A DNA stretch of 64,000 bases, from assembly GCA_965225855.1 (NCBI GenBank), contig CBDDCK010000004.1, forward strand, positions 96,001 through 160,000. The letters are read 5' to 3'. The number at the start of each line of letters is the position of its first letter. Within the stretch, counting starts at the first letter, position 1. Source of the DNA: Spirochaetia bacterium. Its GTDB lineage: Bacteria > Spirochaetota > Spirochaetia > SP-2023. This document shows, one piece after another, positions 9,189-38,220 of the stretch. Below the pieces are notes generated by a model. That model did not search any database, was not told where the DNA came from, and was given only the letters and a program-made list of their open reading frames with translations. A program made the position numbers and the translations under genes.

Positions 9189-11120
9189 ATGAGAAATTCA
9201 AACATAAAGATTTTTACAATGTTTATTTATTTATTGCTGGTAATTTTAATCATTGGCTCTGTCAGTTTTTTAGTTGTTCAGAGGGTGCAAGTAGCCAAAC
9301 AAGCGCAAGCCTATGCAGAGCAAATTGTTGATCGTATCAATAACAGCTATGTAGCAAATGGCAGCTTTACGGTTAATACTTTTACTCGAGACATCAAAGA
9401 TGCGATGCAATCTTTTAGTGATTTGATTAAAGTTATCACTATAGTTGATAGTGAAGATATAATGCAAAATCGCTTTCGTCTGGATAGCATTGACCCCGAG
9501 CAAGACAACAATCCCAATTGGCAAAATGAATTAGAATATAGCTATAATCCATTTCTCTACGAAGAGAAAAGTTACCCTTTATATCTTCCGGGCCAGGTAA
9601 ATGCCAACATCAATATATTGTATCAGCGTTTGCCAATTCAGTTGATTAAAGATGTGTTACAATTTGATACGATTGTAATTCTTGCCCTGCTAATTTTAAG
9701 TTTTCTGACCTTCCTCTTTATCCCCAAGCGCGATCCAGCCGAAACAGCTTGGGCTTTAAAGTCTGTTAATGAAGAAGATGAGCTATATCATGAAATAGAC
9801 AATATCATTGAAGAAAATGATATACAGCAAATAATTGGGGAAAAAACAGATAAAGAGCAAAAACAGTTAGGCGAACAAGATGAACTACCAGAATCTTGGC
9901 ATTCCCATGATTTACCGGAAAACAGCTGGGGCGAAGAAAGTGAAGAAAAAAATGCAAAAACAGTAGAGCCTGAGGAAGATGAATTTGCTCACCTTCTTGG
10001 TTCCAATCAGCTCAATAGCGATATTGTCCATATAGAATCGAATGATGATCGCTGGGGAGATCAAGATAGTGAAAAAACCTCGAAAGATATAGATACCTTC
10101 TTAGAAAATGAGAAAGTAGACCTAAGTTTTAATGATGATTCTATTGCTGAACAAGAGATACAGCAAAGTTCTATCCAAGATATTGATGACTATATTGCTT
10201 CTCAACCTGCACTGCCTGATGAGTTTGTAGAAAAGGAAGCAGAAGAGTTTGATATTCCAAGTGCAGAAAACACAGAAGCAATAACCACTGAAGAAGAGCA
10301 TGAATTAGGCGATTTGTTAGACAATGAATTTCCAGACCTTGAGACCAGCAGTTTTCTGGGGCTAAATGATGAGTTTGTCAATGTGGACAGAATGGAAGCA
10401 ACCGAAAATGAGCAAGAATTTGAGGAATTAGATTTTGGTGATGAATTAGTCGATGATTTAGATGAAGGCTTAGGTGATGACGCGCTAGAAGCTATCGAAG
10501 ATCAGCTTGATGCAAATATATTCTCTCAATTGATGGCTGCGGAATCTGTAGCAGCAACAGAACTGGCTGAAGAAAATGCAGATGATATGGAAATTATAGA
10601 AGATACCGCAAGTCCAGAGCAAACAGACGAACCACTAAATGATGAAGATACACCTCAACCTATGACAGAAGAGCGCAGGCAAGAAGTTTTATCTTGGCTA
10701 GAGAATTTTCTTGAGGATCAAAAAGCAAACTTCGCAGAGAATGATACGCCTGAGCTTTCGGTGGCTTTATTGGAAACCGACAAAACTGATGTTGAAATTG
10801 TGCGGGCTTCACTCGAACAAGATTTAGCCTTGAAAGCATCGATATTACCCAATGATAATGGTATGTCGATTGTTCTTCCCTGTAAAAATATTCAATATGG
10901 TATTGAAGAACTACAAAATGCAGCCGGTAGATTGCCATTTTCTTATCTCAAAAATCTAAAGATGGGAATCACAGGAGTTAGTGCAGTCCGTAGTAATGTA
11001 GAGCCAGCAATAGTTTTAGCCGAAATGGAATATGCTTTAGCGAACAGCGATCAAGATAATAATATCAGCATCTTTGATGCTAACGATCAAGTTTTCAATC
11101 AACAATTTGAAAATGTTTAA
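9189..11120 (+). CDS. Two-TM membrane protein with acidic linker and probable degenerate GGDEF-like C-terminal domain
   Basis: Two TM segments and a long D/E-rich region. The C-terminus LSVALLETD...SIVLP...MGITG...LAEMEYALA resembles the GGDEF fold but lacks the signature. Confidence 0.6.
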   Translation: MRNSNIKIFTMFIYLLLVILIIGSVSFLVVQRVQVAKQAQAYAEQIVDRINNSYVANGSFTVNTFTRDIKDAMQSFSDLIKVITIVDSEDIMQNRFRLDSIDPEQDNNPNWQNELEYSYNPFLYEEKSYPLYLPGQVNANINILYQRLPIQLIKDVLQFDTIVILALLILSFLTFLFIPKRDPAETAWALKSVNEEDELYHEIDNIIEENDIQQIIGEKTDKEQKQLGEQDELPESWHSHDLPENSWGEESEEKNAKTVEPEEDEFAHLLGSNQLNSDIVHIESNDDRWGDQDSEKTSKDIDTFLENEKVDLSFNDDSIAEQEIQQSSIQDIDDYIASQPALPDEFVEKEAEEFDIPSAENTEAITTEEEHELGDLLDNEFPDLETSSFLGLNDEFVNVDRMEATENEQEFEELDFGDELVDDLDEGLGDDALEAIEDQLDANIFSQLMAAESVAATELAEENADDMEIIEDTASPEQTDEPLNDEDTPQPMTEERRQEVLSWLENFLEDQKANFAENDTPELSVALLETDKTDVEIVRASLEQDLALKASILPNDNGMSIVLPCKNIQYGIEELQNAAGRLPFSYLKNLKMGITGVSAVRSNVEPAIVLAEMEYALANSDQDNNISIFDANDQVFNQQFENV

Positions 11121-16328: not shown

Positions 16329-16339
16329 AGCTATCTCCT

Positions 16340-17341
16340 GTTTTTTGGTTTGATATTAGCCCATTGTGCGTTGGTACAAAACAGACCAATCAAAATGGAC
16401 ATGGTTAGGGTGGTTAGATGGAAGGCAATTCGCCTAACGATAAAGTCTTTCAAGGCAAGATAAACTTCTGCGTTATTATCAAAAAAAATAATGCTTATGC
16501 AATATCCATCGACAGATAAACACAGATTTTCGTAAGTATCACAAAAATCGCTCCAAGCTGATTACCAAACTTAATAAAAGAATCACATTCCTTCACAGTC
16601 AAGATCACGAATTTCTTTGTAAAGAAAACGGCCTTTACCGAGCATACTGTGAAGAATCAAAATCATTGGAACGCTACTTTTTGCCTTGGTTCCATAAACA
16701 AACCAACATACATTCTGCAAAGAGTAAAAATATTTTTACACTACAACGCCCCCGTATTGTACTGACAAACAAAGCATGTGTCTGTAGTTTGCTCTGCGGT
16801 AAGTGCTAGATTTGACTATTTCTTTCAGCGTTATTCGCTGTGTATCTCTATATTACAAGTTCTGTAGTATGCTATGGCTTTACGGTTTCACACCAGTTTA
16901 TTTGTTATGCAGTTTAGATGAATGGCAAACTATCTCTTTTAGCAACACGGCTGGCGGAGCAAGTAAGTTTCCCTTAGGTTTCCCTTCTTCAAACTCAACT
17001 TTTGAAGACTCTAAACACCAAGAAATAAAGTCCGGCAACTCAAATAACTTATAGTAAGGCAAACCAGTGACGGCAAACAGCCCCTCTTGCTTACTGCCTA
17101 AAAACCAAAGATGCTGTAATTTTTGCTGAACTTGGTTATTTAATCCGGCTAAAAAATCGCTAGCAAATCGCTCTTGGTGGGTAAACCCATAACTACAAAA
17201 TTGCTGGTAATAAAGTGGCGTTATGAAGTCTTTGCTAAACTCTTCCCAAAAGACCTTTCAAGCAGAAACATTCATTTGCTCCCTAAATTCAGCAAATTTT
17301 ACTAAATTCTCCCGTGTAATTGAACGCTTTTCCATGAACAT
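16340..17341 (-). pseudogene. Heavily degraded unidentified gene upstream of bioB
   Basis: ATG at 17341 opens MFMEKRSITRENLVKFAEFREQMNVSA*KVFWEEF...; long protein-like stretches are broken by stops and frameshifts. Confidence 0.35.
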
Positions 17342-17653
17342 GACTCTTCTACTCGCACTCTAATATAAATGAACTATAAAGCAAAGCCATCTATTCTAGC
17401 CTGCTAAAATAAAATGGATAATCAAAAACCATCTACAAGTTAGACCCGACTATAACACAGAACAAACTAAATGATCGTTGATATTTTAATTGTATTTAAC
17501 CTATACACATATCAGTTATCGGTGATACACAACCCAATTTAAACTATATTTACTCTGAATATCGGCGATAATTTTTCAAATTGCTATTGAGTATAACACA
17601 ACATTCTTTTTGAAGCCTCAATCAAAAGAAATCGATCTTTAAGATGCCTATAT

Positions 17654-20600
17654 TTATGAAGCCGATGGCAACATTTCCAATATCAATTCGACTTCACCAA
17701 CACTCAATTGCGTTGCCCGAGCAATTTCACTACTACTCCATTTTTTACTATGCAGCTGGACAACGGTATTGCGCACATCACTGTCCATCTTACTTCCATT
17801 ATTCACACCCAGAGAACCTCGTTCATTCGGGCGGTTTTTGCGTACAATCGTTTCAACCGTGTGCAAGTTACTTTGTATATTTTCTGACAATTCCAGCATA
17901 CGAGTTTCGGTTTTAGCGATCCATTCGCGCATTTTATCGATCCCCTGACTGTCTGCATGTAACTCGTTAATAGCTTGTTGCATCTCTTGTAGTTCATCTT
18001 GAGTGCTGTGTAACTGTTGCTGCTGCTGTTCTAATTCTTGCTCTAATCCTTTTGCCTTGCCAAAACCCAATTCTAAAGGTTGCAGCTGTTTCTGCATTAC
18101 TTCTATCTTTTGTTCCAAGTCACTCAGATTATCATTATAGCTATGAAGTAAGGAAGCAGCTTCCAATAATTGCTCTTTGCGCTGATCAAGCAATTCCAGT
18201 AAATCACTGCTTTCATTGTATAAATATTCTAGTTTGTCCAAATGGCTTTGATACGATGACATCTTTTGCTGTTGCTGTTCTAAGCTTTCACGCTGTTGAT
18301 ACAGGCTTCCAGACAATTCTAGCACTTGTTCCATCTGCTGTTCCATATCACTTAGTTCATTGCGCCGAGCTAATAAAGTTGCTAGCTGTTCTGAAGTTTT
18401 TTGCCCAATTTGGCTATTTTCATTCAGCGTACTTTGTAACTGCGATATATCTTTTTCCAGTTCACGAAGTAAGTATTCTTTTTCTGCCAATGCTTGCAAA
18501 TTCTCTTGTAATTTTAAACTATCTGGCAAAGCCTTGCGTACATTCGCTAAATTATTCTCTGAAGTATGAATAATTTTATTCAAATCATCGACATCTTTAC
18601 GCATATGGGCCAAGTCATCACGCAGAGCCTTACGTTCATCAGAATTTAATTGGTGCAATTCACGGGTATTCGATAAAATATCTTCATAAAACTGACGGTA
18701 GTTTTCTTCCATTTCCTGTTTCAAAAGCTCAGAACGCTGTCCCACATTTCTTGTCAAATTCTGGCTTAAATTTTCTATAGATGCTTCTTGTTGTTCACTT
18801 AAATTTTGTAAATGTTTTAATTCATCAATTACTCGTTCTCTCTCTCGCTCCATTTTACCCTGTAAGTGTTTATGCAAGTTTTCAAATTCCTTACGCTGTT
18901 TTAACATTTCCTCTTGAGAGGCCAATTGTTGTTCTTGCCAGAATTCATTTCGCTTGTGCTGAGCCTCTTGCGCAGCTTTTGCTTGTTGAGCATTTTGTTC
19001 TGCCAAAAATTTCTTGTGCCATTGCTCCAATTGAGAAATTAAATTCTCTTCCTGTTTTTCTTTTAAATTTTTGCTAAATTCAATGAGACTTTTACTTAAA
19101 GCCTCTTTTTGTTCTTCAAAAGATTCAACAAAATTTTTGCTCCATTGCTCCAAAGCCTTATACTTTTGTTCTAACTTGCTATCAAAATCCTTCTGATATT
19201 CTTTTAATAAATCATTACTTTTCTGGTCGCACTCCAGCAAACCTTGCTGATGTAGTATCGCCTGATCTTGAGCACTTTGTTCAACTTGAGCTAACTGGTA
19301 ACCGATATTACTGCGCAATTCAGTAATAGAATATTCAATCTCTTTGCGCAACTCCACCGTATGATCGGATAAATTTTTATTTAAAGAATCCATGCGTTCA
19401 TTGGCATCTTGCTCAAATTCTTGCAACTGTCCTAACACCTTAGTTTGCTCAACATGCGTTTCTTCGATACGGGCCTGTTGCTCTTTTTGCTCATGTTTAA
19501 ATTGCTCTAATAGCGTATCAAACTCTTCTTTTGCATTGGAAAAATTTTGAGTCAAAGTTTCCCATAATTTATCTTTTTCTTGCTGTGTTAGAGCTAATTC
19601 ATTTTCTAAAGTCTGTTGTTTCGTTTGTATCAATTTTTTCTGAGCAATAAAATGTGTCTCACTTTCCTTCCCCAAAATTTCAAAATGCTCTAGCCAACTT
19701 TTTAAACGCTGTTGTATCTTTTCTTGTACTTCACTTTCAAATTTTGCACCTAAAGATTCCAAAGCCTCAAGCTGTTTGACACGAATTTGTTCCATTTCCT
19801 GCCTCTGCTCTTCCAAACGGGCTTGCCAATTCTGTTGTTGCTGTCTTTGTTCTTCATATTGGCTGGACAACTGGGTTGTAACCAGTTCTTTATTTTCTGC
19901 CAAATCTTTACGATTATCACTCAGCCAATCCTCCCAAACTTGATTTTGTTGTTCCCGAGCATTTTTCTGTTCGCTCAAAAAAGATTGAAGTTCTTTGCGG
20001 TTTCGTACCAACTCCAGTTGAGTATCCTGATGCGATTGAACCTCCCTACGCCCTTCATCTAGTCGCTCCTGCCAACATTCTAAAAAATTGCGCTGCCTCT
20101 GATGATATTCTTCCAGAGCTTCTTCTTGTTCATGCCAAATTTTATCGAGGTGTTCCAACGCTTCCTGACGCTGCTCTACTCTACGCTGTAGTCCCTCCTC
20201 TGAATTTTGGCCTACCTGTTCCAATCGCTCATGCCAATGTTTATCAGCCACATTTAAGTTTTCAGAAAAACGCTCGTGCAATTTTTGCAGCTTTTCATAA
20301 GCTTTTTGCTGATCTTCTTCCATTGAGCCATGGAGTTCTTGCTTTCGCTCTGCAATTTCATCGTAAATAGTTTCAAATTCATCACGGGCATTATCTTGAA
20401 AATTTTTCAAATAATTTTCTTGACGCTGCAGCATTTTTTGCTCTGCAAGCTTAACATTTTTCTTAACAATACCAACTTCAGCCTCTGCCGAAACTTTAGC
20501 ACTGCGCAGGTATTGCAATATTTGTTTTTGCTCTAAATCCCTTTTTTTCTGTAAATTACTGGCATTTCTCAAAGCTTGTTGCAGACGATTCCAATTTTGT

Positions 20601-22306
20601 AAACTACCATTAATTAACTCTTGATGTTTTACTTCTTTATCCTGCTGCTCCCGAGCTTGCTGCTGCAAATCATCTTTCAATTTACGATAAGCTTCTTGCT
20701 CTTTTTCCAGCCCTTCTAGCCTTTTCTCTTCCTCTTCGCGATAACGATGTTGTTCAGCCCGCTGTAATTTTTTTAACTCATGTAGATCATTTTCCGTCTT
20801 TTCAATATTTAAAGCTAATTGTCCCGTAATTTCTTTCCATTGATTATCGATTTTCTCACTATCATGCAATGCTATACGCAAATTGCCATCTAAGACCGTA
20901 TATTTTTGTTCGGCCCTTTGTAACATTCCATCAAGTTTACACGCATACTCTTCGACTTGAAGCAAATTCCCTGCTAAACGGGCTTCCCTACGGCGGTATT
21001 CATCTTGTTCATCTGCCGAGTTACAATCGTCTAACAATTTTGTTAATTTTTCTTTAAGGCCAGCATCTTTTTGAAAAAGTTGTAACAATTGCTCTCGGCA
21101 CTCTTGCGCAATTGCAGCTATTTCACTCTCCTCACCCAGCAAATGGGATTTGTTCAAACCTTGAAAACAAGGATTTACTAAGTTTAAACTCCAAAACAAA
21201 CTAATACCTTTGTCCCAAAAAGCATCAACTTTTTCTTGATCTTCTGGAAAAACTTCACGCAAAACACTGACAAAAGCCCTTTGTAGTTGGCGAATATGCA
21301 ATCCACCACTACAGGCGTGGCCATTGACAAAGCTTTGAACCAAACGCTGATTATATAGGCCACTATCATTAATCTGCCATTCAGCCAAATGAGTAAAACT
21401 CAACTGCCATCTTTCACCCTTTAGATTGCAAGGCTGGTAAAGATAATTTAATTTTCTCCATTGCGGTAGAGTTTTAAATAAATCTCCTATACTTTTTTGT
21501 CTAATGATATGGCTTTGATTTAAATGAATTTCCAAACCCGGATATAAAGCAGCAATTTTACACAATACGTCAAACAATTGTGGAATTCGTATCGATTGTT
21601 TACCAAAAATTTCAGAATCAGGCGTAAAACGAATAAAAGTACCATTTTCCTTATCACATCGGCCACGGCGATCCCTTACAACACGCCCTCCGGAACTTTC
21701 TATTTCAGCAAATTTATGTTCTTGATACGATCGCAGCAAAAAACGACTGCTCAAAGCATTGACTAATTTTAAACCTAAACCACTAAGGCCTTCACAAAAT
21801 TGAATTTCCACACTATTATTTTTTGAGTTTTGCCCTAATTTTTGAATTTTTGTACGCAACTGCGTATGCGGAATGCCCCGCCCATAATCACGAATCGTAA
21901 TGGTTTCAGAACTACAAAGCACGTCAATAATCTTGCCTTGTCCTTTGCTGTATCCTTGAAGGTATTCATCAATACTATTATTGAGCAATTCTTTAAATAG
22001 CACGGTAACACCACTATGCCATGTTTTTTGGTTGCCCAAATTATAACGCAAATTTTGGCTCCCAGGCATATCCGTAATAGAAGTATATAAGTAGTTAGGA
22101 TAATGCTGGCGCAAATGCTCAATAATAGAGCTAGGCCTATTAGCTCTTACGCTGTGGATACCCGATTTAGACACAGCTGCCGTGGAAGCTGGGCTGGAAA
22201 CAGAAGAAGTTTCTGTTTTTAGTGGCACTTTCGGCACTAAAGCTAAAGGGGGCATGACAAAATCCCTACCATGTTCAACGGAAGTATTATCAGAGAGGTC
22301 TTTCAT
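17654..22306 (-). CDS. Fusion of a ParE/GyrB-like GHKL ATPase + transducer with a SpiroCoCo-like long coiled coil and C-terminal HTH-like tail
   Basis: KELLNNSIDE, IRDYGRGIP, GLSGLGLKLVNALS, GTFIRFTPDSEIF and SFVNG..GGLH motifs; then ~1100 aa of heptad-rich E/Q/K/L sequence; ends VVQLHSKKWSSSEIARATQLSVGEVELILEM. Confidence 0.8.
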   Translation of the reverse strand: MKDLSDNTSVEHGRDFVMPPLALVPKVPLKTETSSVSSPASTAAVSKSGIHSVRANRPSSIIEHLRQHYPNYLYTSITDMPGSQNLRYNLGNQKTWHSGVTVLFKELLNNSIDEYLQGYSKGQGKIIDVLCSSETITIRDYGRGIPHTQLRTKIQKLGQNSKNNSVEIQFCEGLSGLGLKLVNALSSRFLLRSYQEHKFAEIESSGGRVVRDRRGRCDKENGTFIRFTPDSEIFGKQSIRIPQLFDVLCKIAALYPGLEIHLNQSHIIRQKSIGDLFKTLPQWRKLNYLYQPCNLKGERWQLSFTHLAEWQINDSGLYNQRLVQSFVNGHACSGGLHIRQLQRAFVSVLREVFPEDQEKVDAFWDKGISLFWSLNLVNPCFQGLNKSHLLGEESEIAAIAQECREQLLQLFQKDAGLKEKLTKLLDDCNSADEQDEYRRREARLAGNLLQVEEYACKLDGMLQRAEQKYTVLDGNLRIALHDSEKIDNQWKEITGQLALNIEKTENDLHELKKLQRAEQHRYREEEEKRLEGLEKEQEAYRKLKDDLQQQAREQQDKEVKHQELINGSLQNWNRLQQALRNASNLQKKRDLEQKQILQYLRSAKVSAEAEVGIVKKNVKLAEQKMLQRQENYLKNFQDNARDEFETIYDEIAERKQELHGSMEEDQQKAYEKLQKLHERFSENLNVADKHWHERLEQVGQNSEEGLQRRVEQRQEALEHLDKIWHEQEEALEEYHQRQRNFLECWQERLDEGRREVQSHQDTQLELVRNRKELQSFLSEQKNAREQQNQVWEDWLSDNRKDLAENKELVTTQLSSQYEEQRQQQQNWQARLEEQRQEMEQIRVKQLEALESLGAKFESEVQEKIQQRLKSWLEHFEILGKESETHFIAQKKLIQTKQQTLENELALTQQEKDKLWETLTQNFSNAKEEFDTLLEQFKHEQKEQQARIEETHVEQTKVLGQLQEFEQDANERMDSLNKNLSDHTVELRKEIEYSITELRSNIGYQLAQVEQSAQDQAILHQQGLLECDQKSNDLLKEYQKDFDSKLEQKYKALEQWSKNFVESFEEQKEALSKSLIEFSKNLKEKQEENLISQLEQWHKKFLAEQNAQQAKAAQEAQHKRNEFWQEQQLASQEEMLKQRKEFENLHKHLQGKMERERERVIDELKHLQNLSEQQEASIENLSQNLTRNVGQRSELLKQEMEENYRQFYEDILSNTRELHQLNSDERKALRDDLAHMRKDVDDLNKIIHTSENNLANVRKALPDSLKLQENLQALAEKEYLLRELEKDISQLQSTLNENSQIGQKTSEQLATLLARRNELSDMEQQMEQVLELSGSLYQQRESLEQQQQKMSSYQSHLDKLEYLYNESSDLLELLDQRKEQLLEAASLLHSYNDNLSDLEQKIEVMQKQLQPLELGFGKAKGLEQELEQQQQQLHSTQDELQEMQQAINELHADSQGIDKMREWIAKTETRMLELSENIQSNLHTVETIVRKNRPNERGSLGVNNGSKMDSDVRNTVVQLHSKKWSSSEIARATQLSVGEVELILEMLPSAS

Positions 22307-28154: not shown

Positions 28155-28217
28155 AGGGCTCTATGCACTAGCCCGTATGGGTTGGTTAATCTTTATCCAT
28201 TTTTGGAGGTATTGCTT

Positions 28218-30356
28218 ATGTATAAGCTCAAACTACTTTTATTGCCTGTAGCATTGCTACTGGCCTTTATGGCCTTTGCCTGCGCACCACCCGATGACGA
28301 TGATCGATCTTCTGGGCCGACTATCAATAACGCCATCTACGACTTTGCTACGGCTATCTTAACTGTACAAGGTACTCACTTAGGTGGTGCGCAACAAGCG
28401 CAAATCCAAACCATCACGGTAGGAAGCCGAACAAATGGTGTAGCCTTAAGTTCCTATACTGCAGATGACCCAGCCACTGGGCCAGATAGTCGCAGTCTTG
28501 CAAAAGGTAAGTACCGTATTAAAAGCGATGGCACAGCGCTTTGGCTGAAACTTACCGATGACGATAAAGCTACTCTTGAGGCCAAGGTGGGTAGCGATGG
28601 TCTAAAAAAAGGGTTGCTTACTAGCACTGGTGCTTGGGCGGGTTTAAATACAGCCAAAGACTTGGAAGTTAGTAATGTACCCGAAAATAAGCAGTCTAAA
28701 GTATCCGATGACAATCAGCCATCTAAGCAAACTGAAGACGAACAAGCTGAAGAAGTCGAACAAACTGAAGAAGACGAACAAGACGAACAAACCGAAGAGC
28801 AGTCGCCTAAGCAACCTAAAGACGAACAAGACGAAGAAGAGTCGCCTAAGCAACCTAAAGACGAACAAGTCGAACAAGCTGAAGAAGAGTCGCCTAAAGC
28901 TGCAATTACCCGTGCAACCTACGATGTTGGCACGGCGCTGTTAACCTTGCAAGGTACTGACTTAGGTAGTGCAACCCAAGCGCAAATCCAAACTATCACG
29001 GTAGATGGCCTAGCCTTAAATTCCTATTCTCCAGATGACGATGCTACTGGGCTAAATAGTCGTGGTCTGGCAAAAGGTAAGTACCGCATGCATAGCGCTG
29101 GCACAGCGCTTTGGCTTTACCTTACCGATACCGATAAAACTACTCTGAATGGCAAGGACGGTATGGATACCAATGGTCTAAAAAAAGGGTTGCTTAGCGT
29201 TGGCTCTGGTGCTTGGGCGGGTTTAAATACAGCCAAAGCCTTGGCCGTTAGTGGAAACCCACCCGCAATTACCCGTGCAACCTATGATGTAAATACGGGT
29301 AAATTAGTGATTACAGGTACTAATTTACCGTCAACAGTGTATGATGGCTGGGACTTTAGCAAATTGAGGTTTGTCGCAGGTAATGGTCGTAAGAGTGCCC
29401 CATTATTACGGCACCACCCATATCCAGAAAACTTCGCCATAGGTTCTGCAGGAAGTGCAACAAGCTTAACGATTACTTTAGGGGGTAGTGAAAAAAGGAA
29501 AGCCGATGCTATATTGGTTAACGATGGTGATAGTGATGCTAATGGTCAATACAACCTGGAAGCAGCAGCAGGATTTGCAGGTGGTAGCGCTGGAGACACA
29601 ACCAATCCTATTACCGTTAGTGGGTATACAGCCAGAATCACCAGAGCAACCTACGATGCTAATACAGGCCAGTTAGTGATTGTAGGTTACAATTTACCGA
29701 AAACAGTTGCAGACTGGGACTTTAGCAAATTGACGCTTGTATCCGGTGATGGTAAGAAGAGATACACATTACCCCGGCACTCAACCACAGGTGCAAACAC
29801 AGCCACAGGTTCTCGTGCAAGTAGAGTCAGCTTAACGATTACTTTAAGCGGTACTGTAAAAGCGGAAGCCAATAAGATACTGGTTAAGAATGGTGATAGT
29901 GATGATAATGGTGCATACAACCTGGAAGCAGCAGCAGAATTTGCAGGTGGTAGGGCTGAAGACACAAGCAACCCGATTACCGTTAGTGGCTACGTAAGCT
30001 TGCTCAACACCGTATCATATATAACTCATAGAAGCGTGTTAAATATTAGTGGTAGCAGGTTACCGACAGCAGTTGCAGAGTGGGACTTTAGCAAATTGAC
30101 GCTTGTATCCGGTGATGGTAAGAAGAGATACACATTACCCCGGCACTCAACTACAGGTGCAAACAAAGCCACAGGTTCTCGTGCAAGTGCAACAAGCTTA
30201 AATATTACTTTAAGCGGTATTGTAAAAGCCAAAGTCGAGGCTATACTGGTTAAGTCTGGTTTTGGTGATGCTAATGGTGCATACAACCTGGAAGCAGCAG
30301 CAGAATTTGTACCTGGTAGCGCAGAAGACCTAACCACTAGTATATTCAAGTTATAA
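28218..30356 (+). CDS. Surface lipoprotein with repeated beta-rich (Ig-like) domains, copy 1 (A-linker-A-B-B-B)
   Basis: GGAGG RBS; signal MYKLKLLLLPVALLLAFMAFA-C; repeats ITRATYD..TG.LVITG.NLP..WDFSKL..YNLEAAA; E/Q/P-rich linker. Confidence 0.85.
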   Translation: MYKLKLLLLPVALLLAFMAFACAPPDDDDRSSGPTINNAIYDFATAILTVQGTHLGGAQQAQIQTITVGSRTNGVALSSYTADDPATGPDSRSLAKGKYRIKSDGTALWLKLTDDDKATLEAKVGSDGLKKGLLTSTGAWAGLNTAKDLEVSNVPENKQSKVSDDNQPSKQTEDEQAEEVEQTEEDEQDEQTEEQSPKQPKDEQDEEESPKQPKDEQVEQAEEESPKAAITRATYDVGTALLTLQGTDLGSATQAQIQTITVDGLALNSYSPDDDATGLNSRGLAKGKYRMHSAGTALWLYLTDTDKTTLNGKDGMDTNGLKKGLLSVGSGAWAGLNTAKALAVSGNPPAITRATYDVNTGKLVITGTNLPSTVYDGWDFSKLRFVAGNGRKSAPLLRHHPYPENFAIGSAGSATSLTITLGGSEKRKADAILVNDGDSDANGQYNLEAAAGFAGGSAGDTTNPITVSGYTARITRATYDANTGQLVIVGYNLPKTVADWDFSKLTLVSGDGKKRYTLPRHSTTGANTATGSRASRVSLTITLSGTVKAEANKILVKNGDSDDNGAYNLEAAAEFAGGRAEDTSNPITVSGYVSLLNTVSYITHRSVLNISGSRLPTAVAEWDFSKLTLVSGDGKKRYTLPRHSTTGANKATGSRASATSLNITLSGIVKAKVEAILVKSGFGDANGAYNLEAAAEFVPGSAEDLTTSIFKL
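28730..28898 (+). repeat. Imperfect coding tandem repeats (EQ.EE.SPKQPKD) in lipoprotein copy 1 linker
   Basis: Recurrent GACGAACAAG and AGTCGCCTAAGCAACCTAAAGACGAACAAG units. Confidence 0.85.
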
Positions 30357-36691: not shown

Positions 36692-38220
36692 ACTAGATAA
36701 CATAAACTACAACCCAGATATATTGAACCGTCTTGCGAATTTAAGCAATGATGAAGTTTTTACCCCAGCAAAAATTGCCAACCAAATATTAGATATGTTG
36801 CCTGATCAAATCTGAGAAGATGAAACCATAACTTTTTTAGACCCTTGCACCAAATCGGGGATATTTTTGCGAGAAATTGTAAAACGCTTAGTTGTTGGCT
36901 TAGGTAAAAAGCTTCCTAATTTAGAAGATAGAGTAACCCATAATATTACAAAATCAAGTTTTTGGTATAGCCATAACCCAACTTACTGGATTTTTAGCAC
37001 GCAGAACCGTGTATTGTGCTAAAAAAGCCGATTCTAAATTATCTATAGTTCCTTTTAATAATCAGCAAGGTAATATTCTATTTAATAGAATATTACACAG
37101 TTGGAATCAACATGGGGAATGCAACTATTGCGGTGCCAGTCAAAAACAATATTATCGAGGTGATGACTTAGAAACCCACGCATACGAATTTATTCATACA
37201 GAAAAACCAGAAAAATTATTTACAGACGCAAAAGGAAAACCAATGAAATTTGATGTAATTATAGGAAACCCGCCATATCAAATGAATGATGGGGGAGCGC
37301 AAGCATCTGCTAAGCCTTTATACCATAAATTTATTCAGCAGGCGAAAAAACTAAAGCCTAGATATTTATCTATGATTATTCCTGCGCGTTGGTACGCTGG
37401 GGGTAAAGGGCTAGACGAATTCAGGGATCAAATGTTGAATGATACTTCTATTAAAACATTAGTGGATTTTCCCAAGGCGTCCGATTGCTTTAACGGCGTG
37501 GAAATTAAAGGGGGCGTGTGTTATTTCCTGTGGGATAGGGATAACCCAAGTGATAAATGCGAAGTAATAACAGTAAGTAGCAATGGCGAAAAATCAAGAA
37601 TGCAAAGACCCTTATTATCCCATGGAATGGATACCTTTATTCGTTTCAATGAATCTGTATCTATTTACGATAAAGTGAAAAAATTAGGAGAACAATCTTT
37701 TGCCGATTATGTGAGTTATCGTAAACCTTTTGGGTTACCTACTACATATCGTGGAAAAGCAGAATCAGCAGAAAATCCAATTAAGATTTATACGACTAAA
37801 TCCACAGGGTATGTAAATAATGATGATATAGAAAAAAATCATCATTGGGTGGATACCTATAAGGTCTACACTCCTATGGCTGCTGCGGGGGGTGGAGAAT
37901 TCCCTAATGATATTTTAGGAAAACCTATCTTAGGATTACCCAATACCTGTTGTTCTGAAACCTATTTGGTTGTTGGTCCTTTTGAAAACCAACAAACGGC
38001 TAAAAATGTTCAGTCCTATATGGCAACAAAGTTTTTCAGATTTTTAGTTATGCTAAAGAAAATATCACAGCACGCATCACAAAAAGTATACGAGTGTGTG
38101 CCAATGCAAGATTTTAATGAAGTTTGGATTGATGAAAAATTATATCAAAAATATGCTCTAAACGAAGAAGAAATAAATTTTATAGAATCAATGATAAAGC
38201 CTATACCGATAAAGCTGTAG
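36684..38220 (+). pseudogene. Eco57I-like N6-adenine methyltransferase, disrupted
   Basis: MNKLDNINYNPDIL..SNDEVFTP; in-frame TGA at 36813-36815; FLDPCTKSGIFL; frameshift near 36945; then FDVIIGNPPYQ in ORF 37009..38220. Confidence 0.88.

Follow-up and report, generated by a model that had tools for sequence, protein, structure and literature searches.

A ParE-type ATPase head on a SpiroCoCo coiled-coil rod in one genus of Spirochaetia

A 64,000-nt stretch of the genome of a Spirochaetia bacterium (GenBank assembly GCA_965225855.1, contig CBDDCK010000004.1, positions 96,001 to 160,000; hereafter the window) contains at 17654..22306, on the minus strand, a single open reading frame (ORF) of 1550 amino acids (aa), stop-free throughout, in which a ParE-like GHKL ATPase head is followed by a long helical rod and the C-terminal domain of SpiroCoCo proteins. 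It is practically certain that this gene is a real, selected and repurposed ParE-SpiroCoCo fusion. The explanation preferred here, at a probability of about 0.4, is that two duplicates, one from a spirochaete-type parE (its ATPase and transducer half) and one from a SpiroCoCo gene (its C-terminal part), were joined and neofunctionalised, and that the product may serve as a tether: a soluble coiled coil that carries a head switched by nucleotide and ends in a tail that docks at the pole or the flagellum. The parts of the gene, with the evidence for each, are as follows.

17654..22306, minus strand: whole gene, 1550 aa, stand-alone (ORF; neighbours vary between genomes)
22142..22306, minus strand: aa 1-55, variable Pro/Ser-rich leader replacing the ParE N-terminal strap, without Y5, I10 and L13 (17-34% identity among four genomes)
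21602..22141, minus strand: aa 56-235, GHKL (Bergerat) ATPase domain (family scans, residue alignment, AlphaFold2, Foldseek)
21017..21601, minus strand: aa 236-430, ParE-type transducer of S5 fold; the switch lysine is K386 (=K337) and Q335 is lost (L384) (PDB sequence matches, alignment, Foldseek)
18626..21016, minus strand: aa 431-1227, acidic proline-free helical/coiled-coil rod, beginning at the TOPRIM entry point of ParE (periodicity, charge)
17678..18625, minus strand: aa 1228-1543, SpiroCoCo_C (NF047515; 133.7 bits, cut-off 125)
17672..17794, minus strand: aa ~1505-1545, terminal helix-turn-helix (HTH)-like motif of putative DUF6115/DUF2802 type, K-W-x14-E-x2-L (sub-cut-off family scores; profile match)

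Architecture, occurrence and selection

The head is collinear with ParE/GyrB, as had been proposed in a first reading made from the letters alone (hereafter the sequence-only reading). All motifs quoted there were found, namely IEHLR (62-66), KELLNNSIDE (containing E106), DYGRGIP, GLSGLGLKLVNALS, GTFIRFTPD, SFVNG..GGLH, and NPCFQGLNK; Pfam HATPase_c matched aa 102-230 above its cut-off, and parE_Gneg (NCBIfam TIGR01055) matched aa 102-395 with an E-value of 6.5e-21 at a score far below its cut-off. The absence of TOPRIM, also claimed, held: the Pfam scan of the fusion returned no Toprim and, at E<=0.1, no DNA_gyraseB, and the TOPRIM motifs EGxSA and DxDxDG were missing from 10/10 fusion proteins. 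The C-terminus had rightly been called SpiroCoCo-type, and SpiroCoCo_C was above its cut-off in all seven full-length fusions scanned (126.9-141.5 bits; the truncated P0009 gave no match). What had been described as ~1100 aa of coiled coil is a periodic helical rod, although not one uniform heptad coil: no proline occurs in aa 431-1260, helical hydrophobic periodicity was detected in 10/11 segments of 100 aa (431-1530, shuffle p<0.05), with a period of 3.5 in some segments and 3.6-3.67 in others, and the net charge is -44 (aa 431-1225).

The fused frame is backed by sequence runs, in which contigs cross the junction at ~21000. A 31-kb contig of run X1 covers the whole gene with 0 differences and may itself be the source; in run X2, from the same sample, one contig with 0 differences and another from a variant strain (67 differences within 20792-21229) both span ~21000. 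Runs X4 and X5 yielded short pieces only. A junction query (aa 341-540) matched 4/401 genomes of the class, which are the four genomes of this genus (54-56% identity over the query, stop-free frames of 1562-1646 codons), and was not found in the 397 sampled class genomes outside the genus. With the head as query, 65-66% identity was obtained in the three other genus genomes (frames of 1599-1646 codons), and 37 genomes of other genera returned only frames of ordinary ParE/GyrB length or fragments. Across four genomes, pN (nonsynonymous divergence) of the head is 0.16-0.23 and pS (synonymous divergence) ranges from 0.61 to saturated; dN/dS is 0.07-0.20 for the head (computable in 3 of 12 comparisons) and 0.06-0.08 for ParE, and identity within the genus is higher in the head (64-76%) than in the rod (53-60%). 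The head is under purifying selection. It was considered whether the frame might be chimeric through assembly, or the neutral remnant of a fusion in one strain, given that holders of the exact DNA come from just two studies and the best of them may be the source. This alternative carries a negligible probability and is refuted by cross-species conservation, since the identical junction recurs in four genomes and in 10 protein clusters and pN lies far under pS.

Those 10 clusters (46-100% identity) were recovered from 5.8 billion proteins and were followed by ordinary topoisomerases. Among 1.84 billion representatives, searched with a profile of 1195 positions rather than with the head alone, only three fusions were found, with scores dropping from >1300 to 171 bits at the next match. 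Of the other listed matches, 29/147 were scanned: 17 had a Toprim match and 11 had none. Eight of the latter were inspected and seem to be ParE/GyrB records that are frameshifted, truncated, divergent or interrupted by an intein; a fusion-type rod was present in none of the eight. The remaining one, P0144 (768 aa; catalytic Glu and lid motif present), is a different, unrelated ParE-type GHKL and transducer without Toprim, joined to ankyrin repeats, a single record that could be an assembly product. No short head-only form (269-858 aa, E<=1e-45) was present among 7999 scored candidates, a related-locus search of genome contigs found no relative, and in the ESM Atlas the head led to GyrB-like clusters only and the tail to unnamed spirochaete clusters. 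Full-text literature, from which most subscription papers and all supplements were outside coverage, contained no description of the fusion. Thus, the architecture is confined to one genus among the genomes searched, in keeping with the rarity that the sequence-only reading had supposed. None of the three conditions named in that reading as refuting it (a junction without read support, a strain-specific deletion product free of purifying selection, an architecture that is already common) was borne out.

Parental genes and the replaced membrane anchor

Separate and intact parental genes, which that reading had expected, are encoded in the source genome: ParE (690 aa) and GyrB (642 aa) are complete and have their TOPRIM motifs, and the two A subunits (ParC and GyrA) have HPHGD and AxRY motifs. 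In this genome, parE is not linked to parC. Each of the four genus genomes has two SpiroCoCo_C matches above cut-off, the fusion and a protein of ~895 aa. The source genome carries a membrane-anchored SpiroCoCo besides the fusion. In the other three genomes (G001-G003), this paralogue (893-895 aa) occupies the usual SpiroCoCo position, after a gene that we take to encode a HAD-like hydrolase, and the fusion lies elsewhere. Because parE, parC, gyrB, gyrA and a second SpiroCoCo are all kept, the fusion is an added, repurposed copy.

The head shares only 26-29% identity with the ParE and GyrB heads of its own genome, and its best non-fusion matches are ~600-aa spirochaete ParEs (29-33%). Residues typical of spirochaete ParE occur in it (EH[IL]R, DYGRG, K at E. 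coli 121, SFVNG), and a 31-row tree, from which 25 rows, chiefly long branches, had been dropped, placed it within the ParE clade with an SH-aLRT (Shimodaira-Hasegawa-like approximate likelihood ratio test) value of 100; in the 56-row tree it was unplaced. Approximately unbiased (AU) tests on the 31-row tree rejected none of the candidate sisters (own-genus ParE p 0.56, spirochaete ParE 0.52, GyrB 0.34), and the stem branch of the fusion head measures 2.5-2.8 changes per site. All four ParEs of the genus (L001:6352-8424, L019:4074-6398, L020:4298-6484, L021:3332-5449) bear a variable acidic GHKL insertion of ~45-70 aa that the fusion head lacks; hence the head split off before the insertion, or lost it, or came from elsewhere. 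On its diagnostic residues and the 31-row tree, the donor of the head is ParE-type, with every candidate sister still compatible with the AU tests.

Complete ordinary SpiroCoCo proteins start in a hydrophobic N-terminal helix in 14/14 cases (KD19 2.2-2.8), against none of eight fusions (maximum KD19 1.56), and SpiroCoCo_N (NF047514) matched none of the fusions scanned. The ATPase hence occupies the place of the membrane anchor, and the fusion protein is predicted to be soluble, its head having replaced the anchor of the ancestral rod. SpiroCoCo was above cut-off in 33/41 spirochaete genomes searched. Frames of 4425 and 2304 codons were seen (G007:C1:76044-76982; G031:C1:525071-526003), rod length covering a roughly fivefold range across spirochaetes. 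TPANIC_0408, which is presumably a SpiroCoCo protein, is labelled ‘ATPase’ in one literature table.

ATPase head, tail and proposed mechanism

Residues were surveyed in 11 homologues using E. coli GyrB numbering. The equivalences (fusion = E. coli) are E106=E42, N110=N46, D140=D73, K162=K103, and K386=K337, further site residues of the fusion being R143, G173/G176/G178, and T223. E42, N46, D49, E50, D73, R76, G77, K103, G114, G117, G119, and G164 are kept in all 11, T165 in 9/11, and the switch lysine K337 in 10/11 (R in the remaining one). The ATP-lid GGK had been read as degenerate, which applies to its glycines and aromatic residue, both lost, but not to its lysine (K103). T336 is lost in 11/11, turning the QTK loop into xxK with the transducer fold and the Lys (10/11) retained. 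Invariant columns amount to 12/22 in the ATP site and 86/321 in the rest of the head (Fisher p=0.012, overstated by the relatedness of the sequences). The Glu equivalent to E42 acts as the catalytic base in human TOP2B, and the switch lysine is called absolutely conserved among type II enzymes (available part of PMC9592559); a transducer lysine is given as the mark of active GHKL+S5 ATPases in the accessible text of PMC2292703.

The head sequence (net charge +7) matches 58 PDB sequences, whose labels are GyrB, ParE or phage topoisomerase II; the top match covers both GHKL and transducer. An AlphaFold2 model from 78 alignment rows reached a pLDDT (predicted local distance difference test) of 90.4 and aligned in Foldseek to 43-kDa ATPase fragments of GyrB/ParE at a template modelling score of ~0.74; the model leans to the ParE fold because these rows are mostly ParE-type, and an earlier 7-row model was poor (pLDDT 53.8). 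Since the nucleotide-site residues are retained, the head probably binds ATP, and from the same residues we lean slightly towards slow hydrolysis.

Over their terminal 70 residues, the fusion and five ordinary SpiroCoCo proteins scored highest, mostly below cut-off, with DUF6115/DUF2802 and more weakly with several HTH families. Short transmembrane (TM)-coil proteins of 152-169 aa with this tail adjoin the flhF-flhG block on its 3' side in 7/7 fetched spirochaete loci; a family scan, made for L065 only, identified FlhA, FlhF, MinD-like FlhG, and FliA. Their coordinates, with those of a candidate in the source genome, are:

L064:5583-6080, L065:6758-7252, L066:6083-6541, L067:4212-4685: short tail proteins
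L068:5384-5863, L069:5583-6068, L070:5914-6423: short tail proteins, continued
G000:C5:187490-188326: short DUF6115/DUF2802-like candidate in the source genome (G000)

At E<=0.01, DUF6115 matched all seven short proteins and DUF2802 six; G, E+16, and L+19 are invariant in them and equal G110/E126/L129 of FipA. In the source genome (10595 frames), a profile of the seven matched the tails of the TM-SpiroCoCo (E 4e-6) and of the fusion (E 0.0017) as well as a frame of 279 aa. In fusion tails, E+16 and L+19 are kept in 8/8. The source genome encodes FlhF. Vibrio FipA has the same operon position and a TM-coil-DUF2802 layout, with G110 and L129 required for FlhF binding, and spirochaetes are said to lack FipA (available sections of PMC11620751). 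The short TM-coil DUF6115/DUF2802-like proteins are thus candidate spirochaete FipA equivalents. SwrB is a further, tentative lead for the tail motif (available part of bioRxiv 10.1101/2021.04.30.442225). In the TM-SpiroCoCo paralogue (L003:8077-10758, orthologues L041-L043), the terminal E+16 is changed to Ala in 3/4, unlike the fusion tail, which keeps the family consensus AKTETR...GEVELILE, a divergence hinting at split roles; the tail tree joins long branches and gives no date for the duplication.

The sequence-only reading had described an HTH-like tail at this end, and a DNA-binding HTH is weakened by these matches: as the tail resembles DUF2802/DUF6115, whose studied member FipA binds FlhF, DNA binding becomes doubtful, and the tail is more plausibly a protein-docking module, whose partner may no longer be FlhF. 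This bears on an alternative in which the fusion is a chromosome organiser like SMC, MORC or SMCHD1, its C-terminal HTH binding DNA and its heads dimerising on ATP to loop or compact it. The head derives from a DNA enzyme, the tail has weak, sub-cut-off HTH-family scores (E 0.002-0.17), and eukaryotic GHKL+S5 coiled-coil fusions exist that are proposed to loop chromosomes (accessible text of PMC2292703). We nevertheless consider the organiser unlikely: membrane-anchored rods and the short membrane proteins of flagellar operons finish in the same tail, the characterised relative of this tail has a protein as its partner, and the rod, besides being acidic, matched no hinge model.

For the preferred tether, the following mechanism is proposed. 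The rod would dimerise as a parallel coiled coil, which at 0.15 nm per residue could reach ~160 nm at full extension, holding two heads side by side and taking over from the topoisomerase core and the lost N-strap, a part that C-terminal dimerisation plays in clamps of the MutL/Hsp90/MORC type. These heads would bind ATP-Mg and hydrolyse it slowly via E106 and K386, and the nucleotide state would switch how they hold a cargo, for which DNA, as in the ParE clamp, is the most plausible candidate; the DUF2802/DUF6115-like end would dock on a protein partner at the pole or the flagellar-base machinery. The fusion cannot cut DNA or pass strands. GHL proteins are described as molecular clamps (PMC1616964), and by analogy the fusion would work like one (PMC1616964 and PMC2292703, both in their accessible parts).

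Several observations weigh against this tether. The strap residues Y5, I10, and L13 are lost in 11/11 (Y5/I10 in 0/11 fusions versus 12/12 ParE; invariant strap columns 0/10 versus 8/10), as are Y109 and Q335, P79 is kept in just 6/11, and 43/120 ParE-invariant columns are altered in every fusion. Each ATP site of a type II topoisomerase is completed by the strap of the other subunit (available part of PMC9592559), so that its loss may leave the fusion with little or no hydrolysis and gating; a canonical strap-swapped dimer in its usual form appears unlikely. As this strap is what builds the type IIA dimer, the nucleotide-gated dimerisation put forward in the sequence-only reading stays hypothetical. 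At the other end, the fusion tail matches DUF6115 (E 1.7e-4) and DUF2802 (E 0.11) below cut-off, and the glycine equivalent to FipA G110 is K or N in 8/8. Finally, the gene neighbours of the fusion differ in each genome (G001-G003 compared), and the literature covered above contains no experiment or study on any SpiroCoCo protein.

Some of these losses would suit a pseudo-ATPase scaffold, in which the nucleotide is structural or the head a static interaction cap, with no hydrolysis cycle or gating; the degenerate GHKL domains of meiotic TopoVIB-like proteins are a parallel. Besides the loss of strap, Y109, and Q335, the long stem branch and 34 new fusion-specific invariant residues, many of them aromatic or Cys, point this way. 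We rate the scaffold as rather improbable, because the catalytic Glu (11/11) and the gamma-phosphate lysine (10/11) persist with no obvious folding role while their neighbours vary, and the ATP-site columns are over-conserved. A topoisomerase accessory or decoy, with the head touching ParE/ParC or GyrB or absorbing a GyrB/ParE-directed inhibitor and the rod positioning it, would fit the retention of the entire 43-kDa ATPase fold, and in gyrase the partners of GHKL surfaces include Toprim inserts, QnrB1, and MfpA (available part of PMC11626157). This role appears quite improbable in view of the low identity to the cell's own ParE/GyrB heads, the absence of TOPRIM, which is the contact to the A subunit, and the lack of linkage to topoisomerase genes. 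A bolder version of the tether would be an independently evolved bacterial ‘GHKL motor on a stalk’, with the topoisomerase IV ATPase acting as an ATP-gated DNA clamp on a ~160-nm coil, the opposite end docking on pole-landmark or flagellar machinery, and the chromosome being actively coupled to the pole; we regard it as speculative and unlikely.

Around the gene, promoter and terminator scans remained at chance level (16 versus 17.7 and 6 versus 4.0), and no RNA dataset occurred among the listed holders of its DNA. Divergent genes that are presumably of the liv-type ABC kind lie upstream, and a gene we take to be bioB-like lies 1.3 kb downstream. In the 1.3 kb in between (16329-17653), every ORF is shorter than 85 aa, and the segment occurs only once in the genome; on its minus strand are two open stretches split by stops, which may represent a decayed gene. 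Elsewhere in the window, the following were recorded:

9189-11120, plus strand: membrane protein of 643 aa whose cytoplasmic region is long and acidic, without a Pfam match; perhaps reminiscent of polar landmark proteins
28182-30356, plus strand: lipoprotein-like ORF of 724 aa that has internal repeats and an acidic linker rich in Q and E, without a significant Pfam match
37009-38220, plus strand: gene with an Eco57I-type DNA methylase domain

Relation to known systems and meaning

With ParE/GyrB, the fusion shares a GHKL domain with N, G1, and G2 boxes and the transducer fold; it differs in lacking TOPRIM, the tail, and the N-strap, in its altered RxRxGMYIG and QTK motifs, and in the 1100-aa rod. 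Like GHL clamp ATPases, it keeps the catalytic Glu, Mg-binding Asn, adenine Asp, lid glycines, and S5 lysine. With SpiroCoCo proteins it has in common the C-terminal domain above cut-off, a long rod, and the terminal motif, whereas it lacks SpiroCoCo_N and the TM helix, bears an ATPase head, and is encoded by an additional copy outside the customary position. SMCHD1/MORC/paraMORC, MutL, and Hsp90 resemble it in the N-terminal GHKL+S5 unit, the conserved S5 basic residue, and a long, probably dimerising region (accessible text of PMC2292703), but the fusion arose independently from a type IIA topoisomerase and has no SMC hinge, nuclease or restriction-modification neighbours; from MORC it is set apart by its ParE-type nearest heads, domains, and neighbours, not by a MORC-specific motif. 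Against SMC and Rad50 models it scores at coiled-coil level only (19.6 and 27.1 bits versus cut-offs of 567 and 1087), which reduces the SMC/MORC-like architecture of the sequence-only reading to an analogy. The tail keeps E+16 and L+19 of the G/E+16/L+19 spacing of FipA, which is, however, a 163-aa membrane protein, whereas the fusion is soluble by prediction, ten times longer, has K/N for Gly, and matches below cut-off. By these features, the fusion falls outside ParE/GyrB, SMC, MORC, and FipA, and is half a SpiroCoCo. Both parts are of known kinds and GHKL-plus-coil designs are known elsewhere; it is the origin that is unusual.

In this fusion, the ATPase of a type IIA topoisomerase has been exapted for work outside topoisomerase activity, with catalytic residues kept and the strap dropped, and as such the fusion is a natural test of what the GHKL switch requires. 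It parallels the GHKL-plus-coiled-coil design of MORC/SMCHD1 by an independent route. If the motor on a stalk were true, the whole SpiroCoCo family would be extended FipA-like pole tethers. The fusion further offers a handle on the giant SpiroCoCo proteins, since the exchange of anchor for ATPase and the FipA-like tail make a role at the pole or the chromosome testable.

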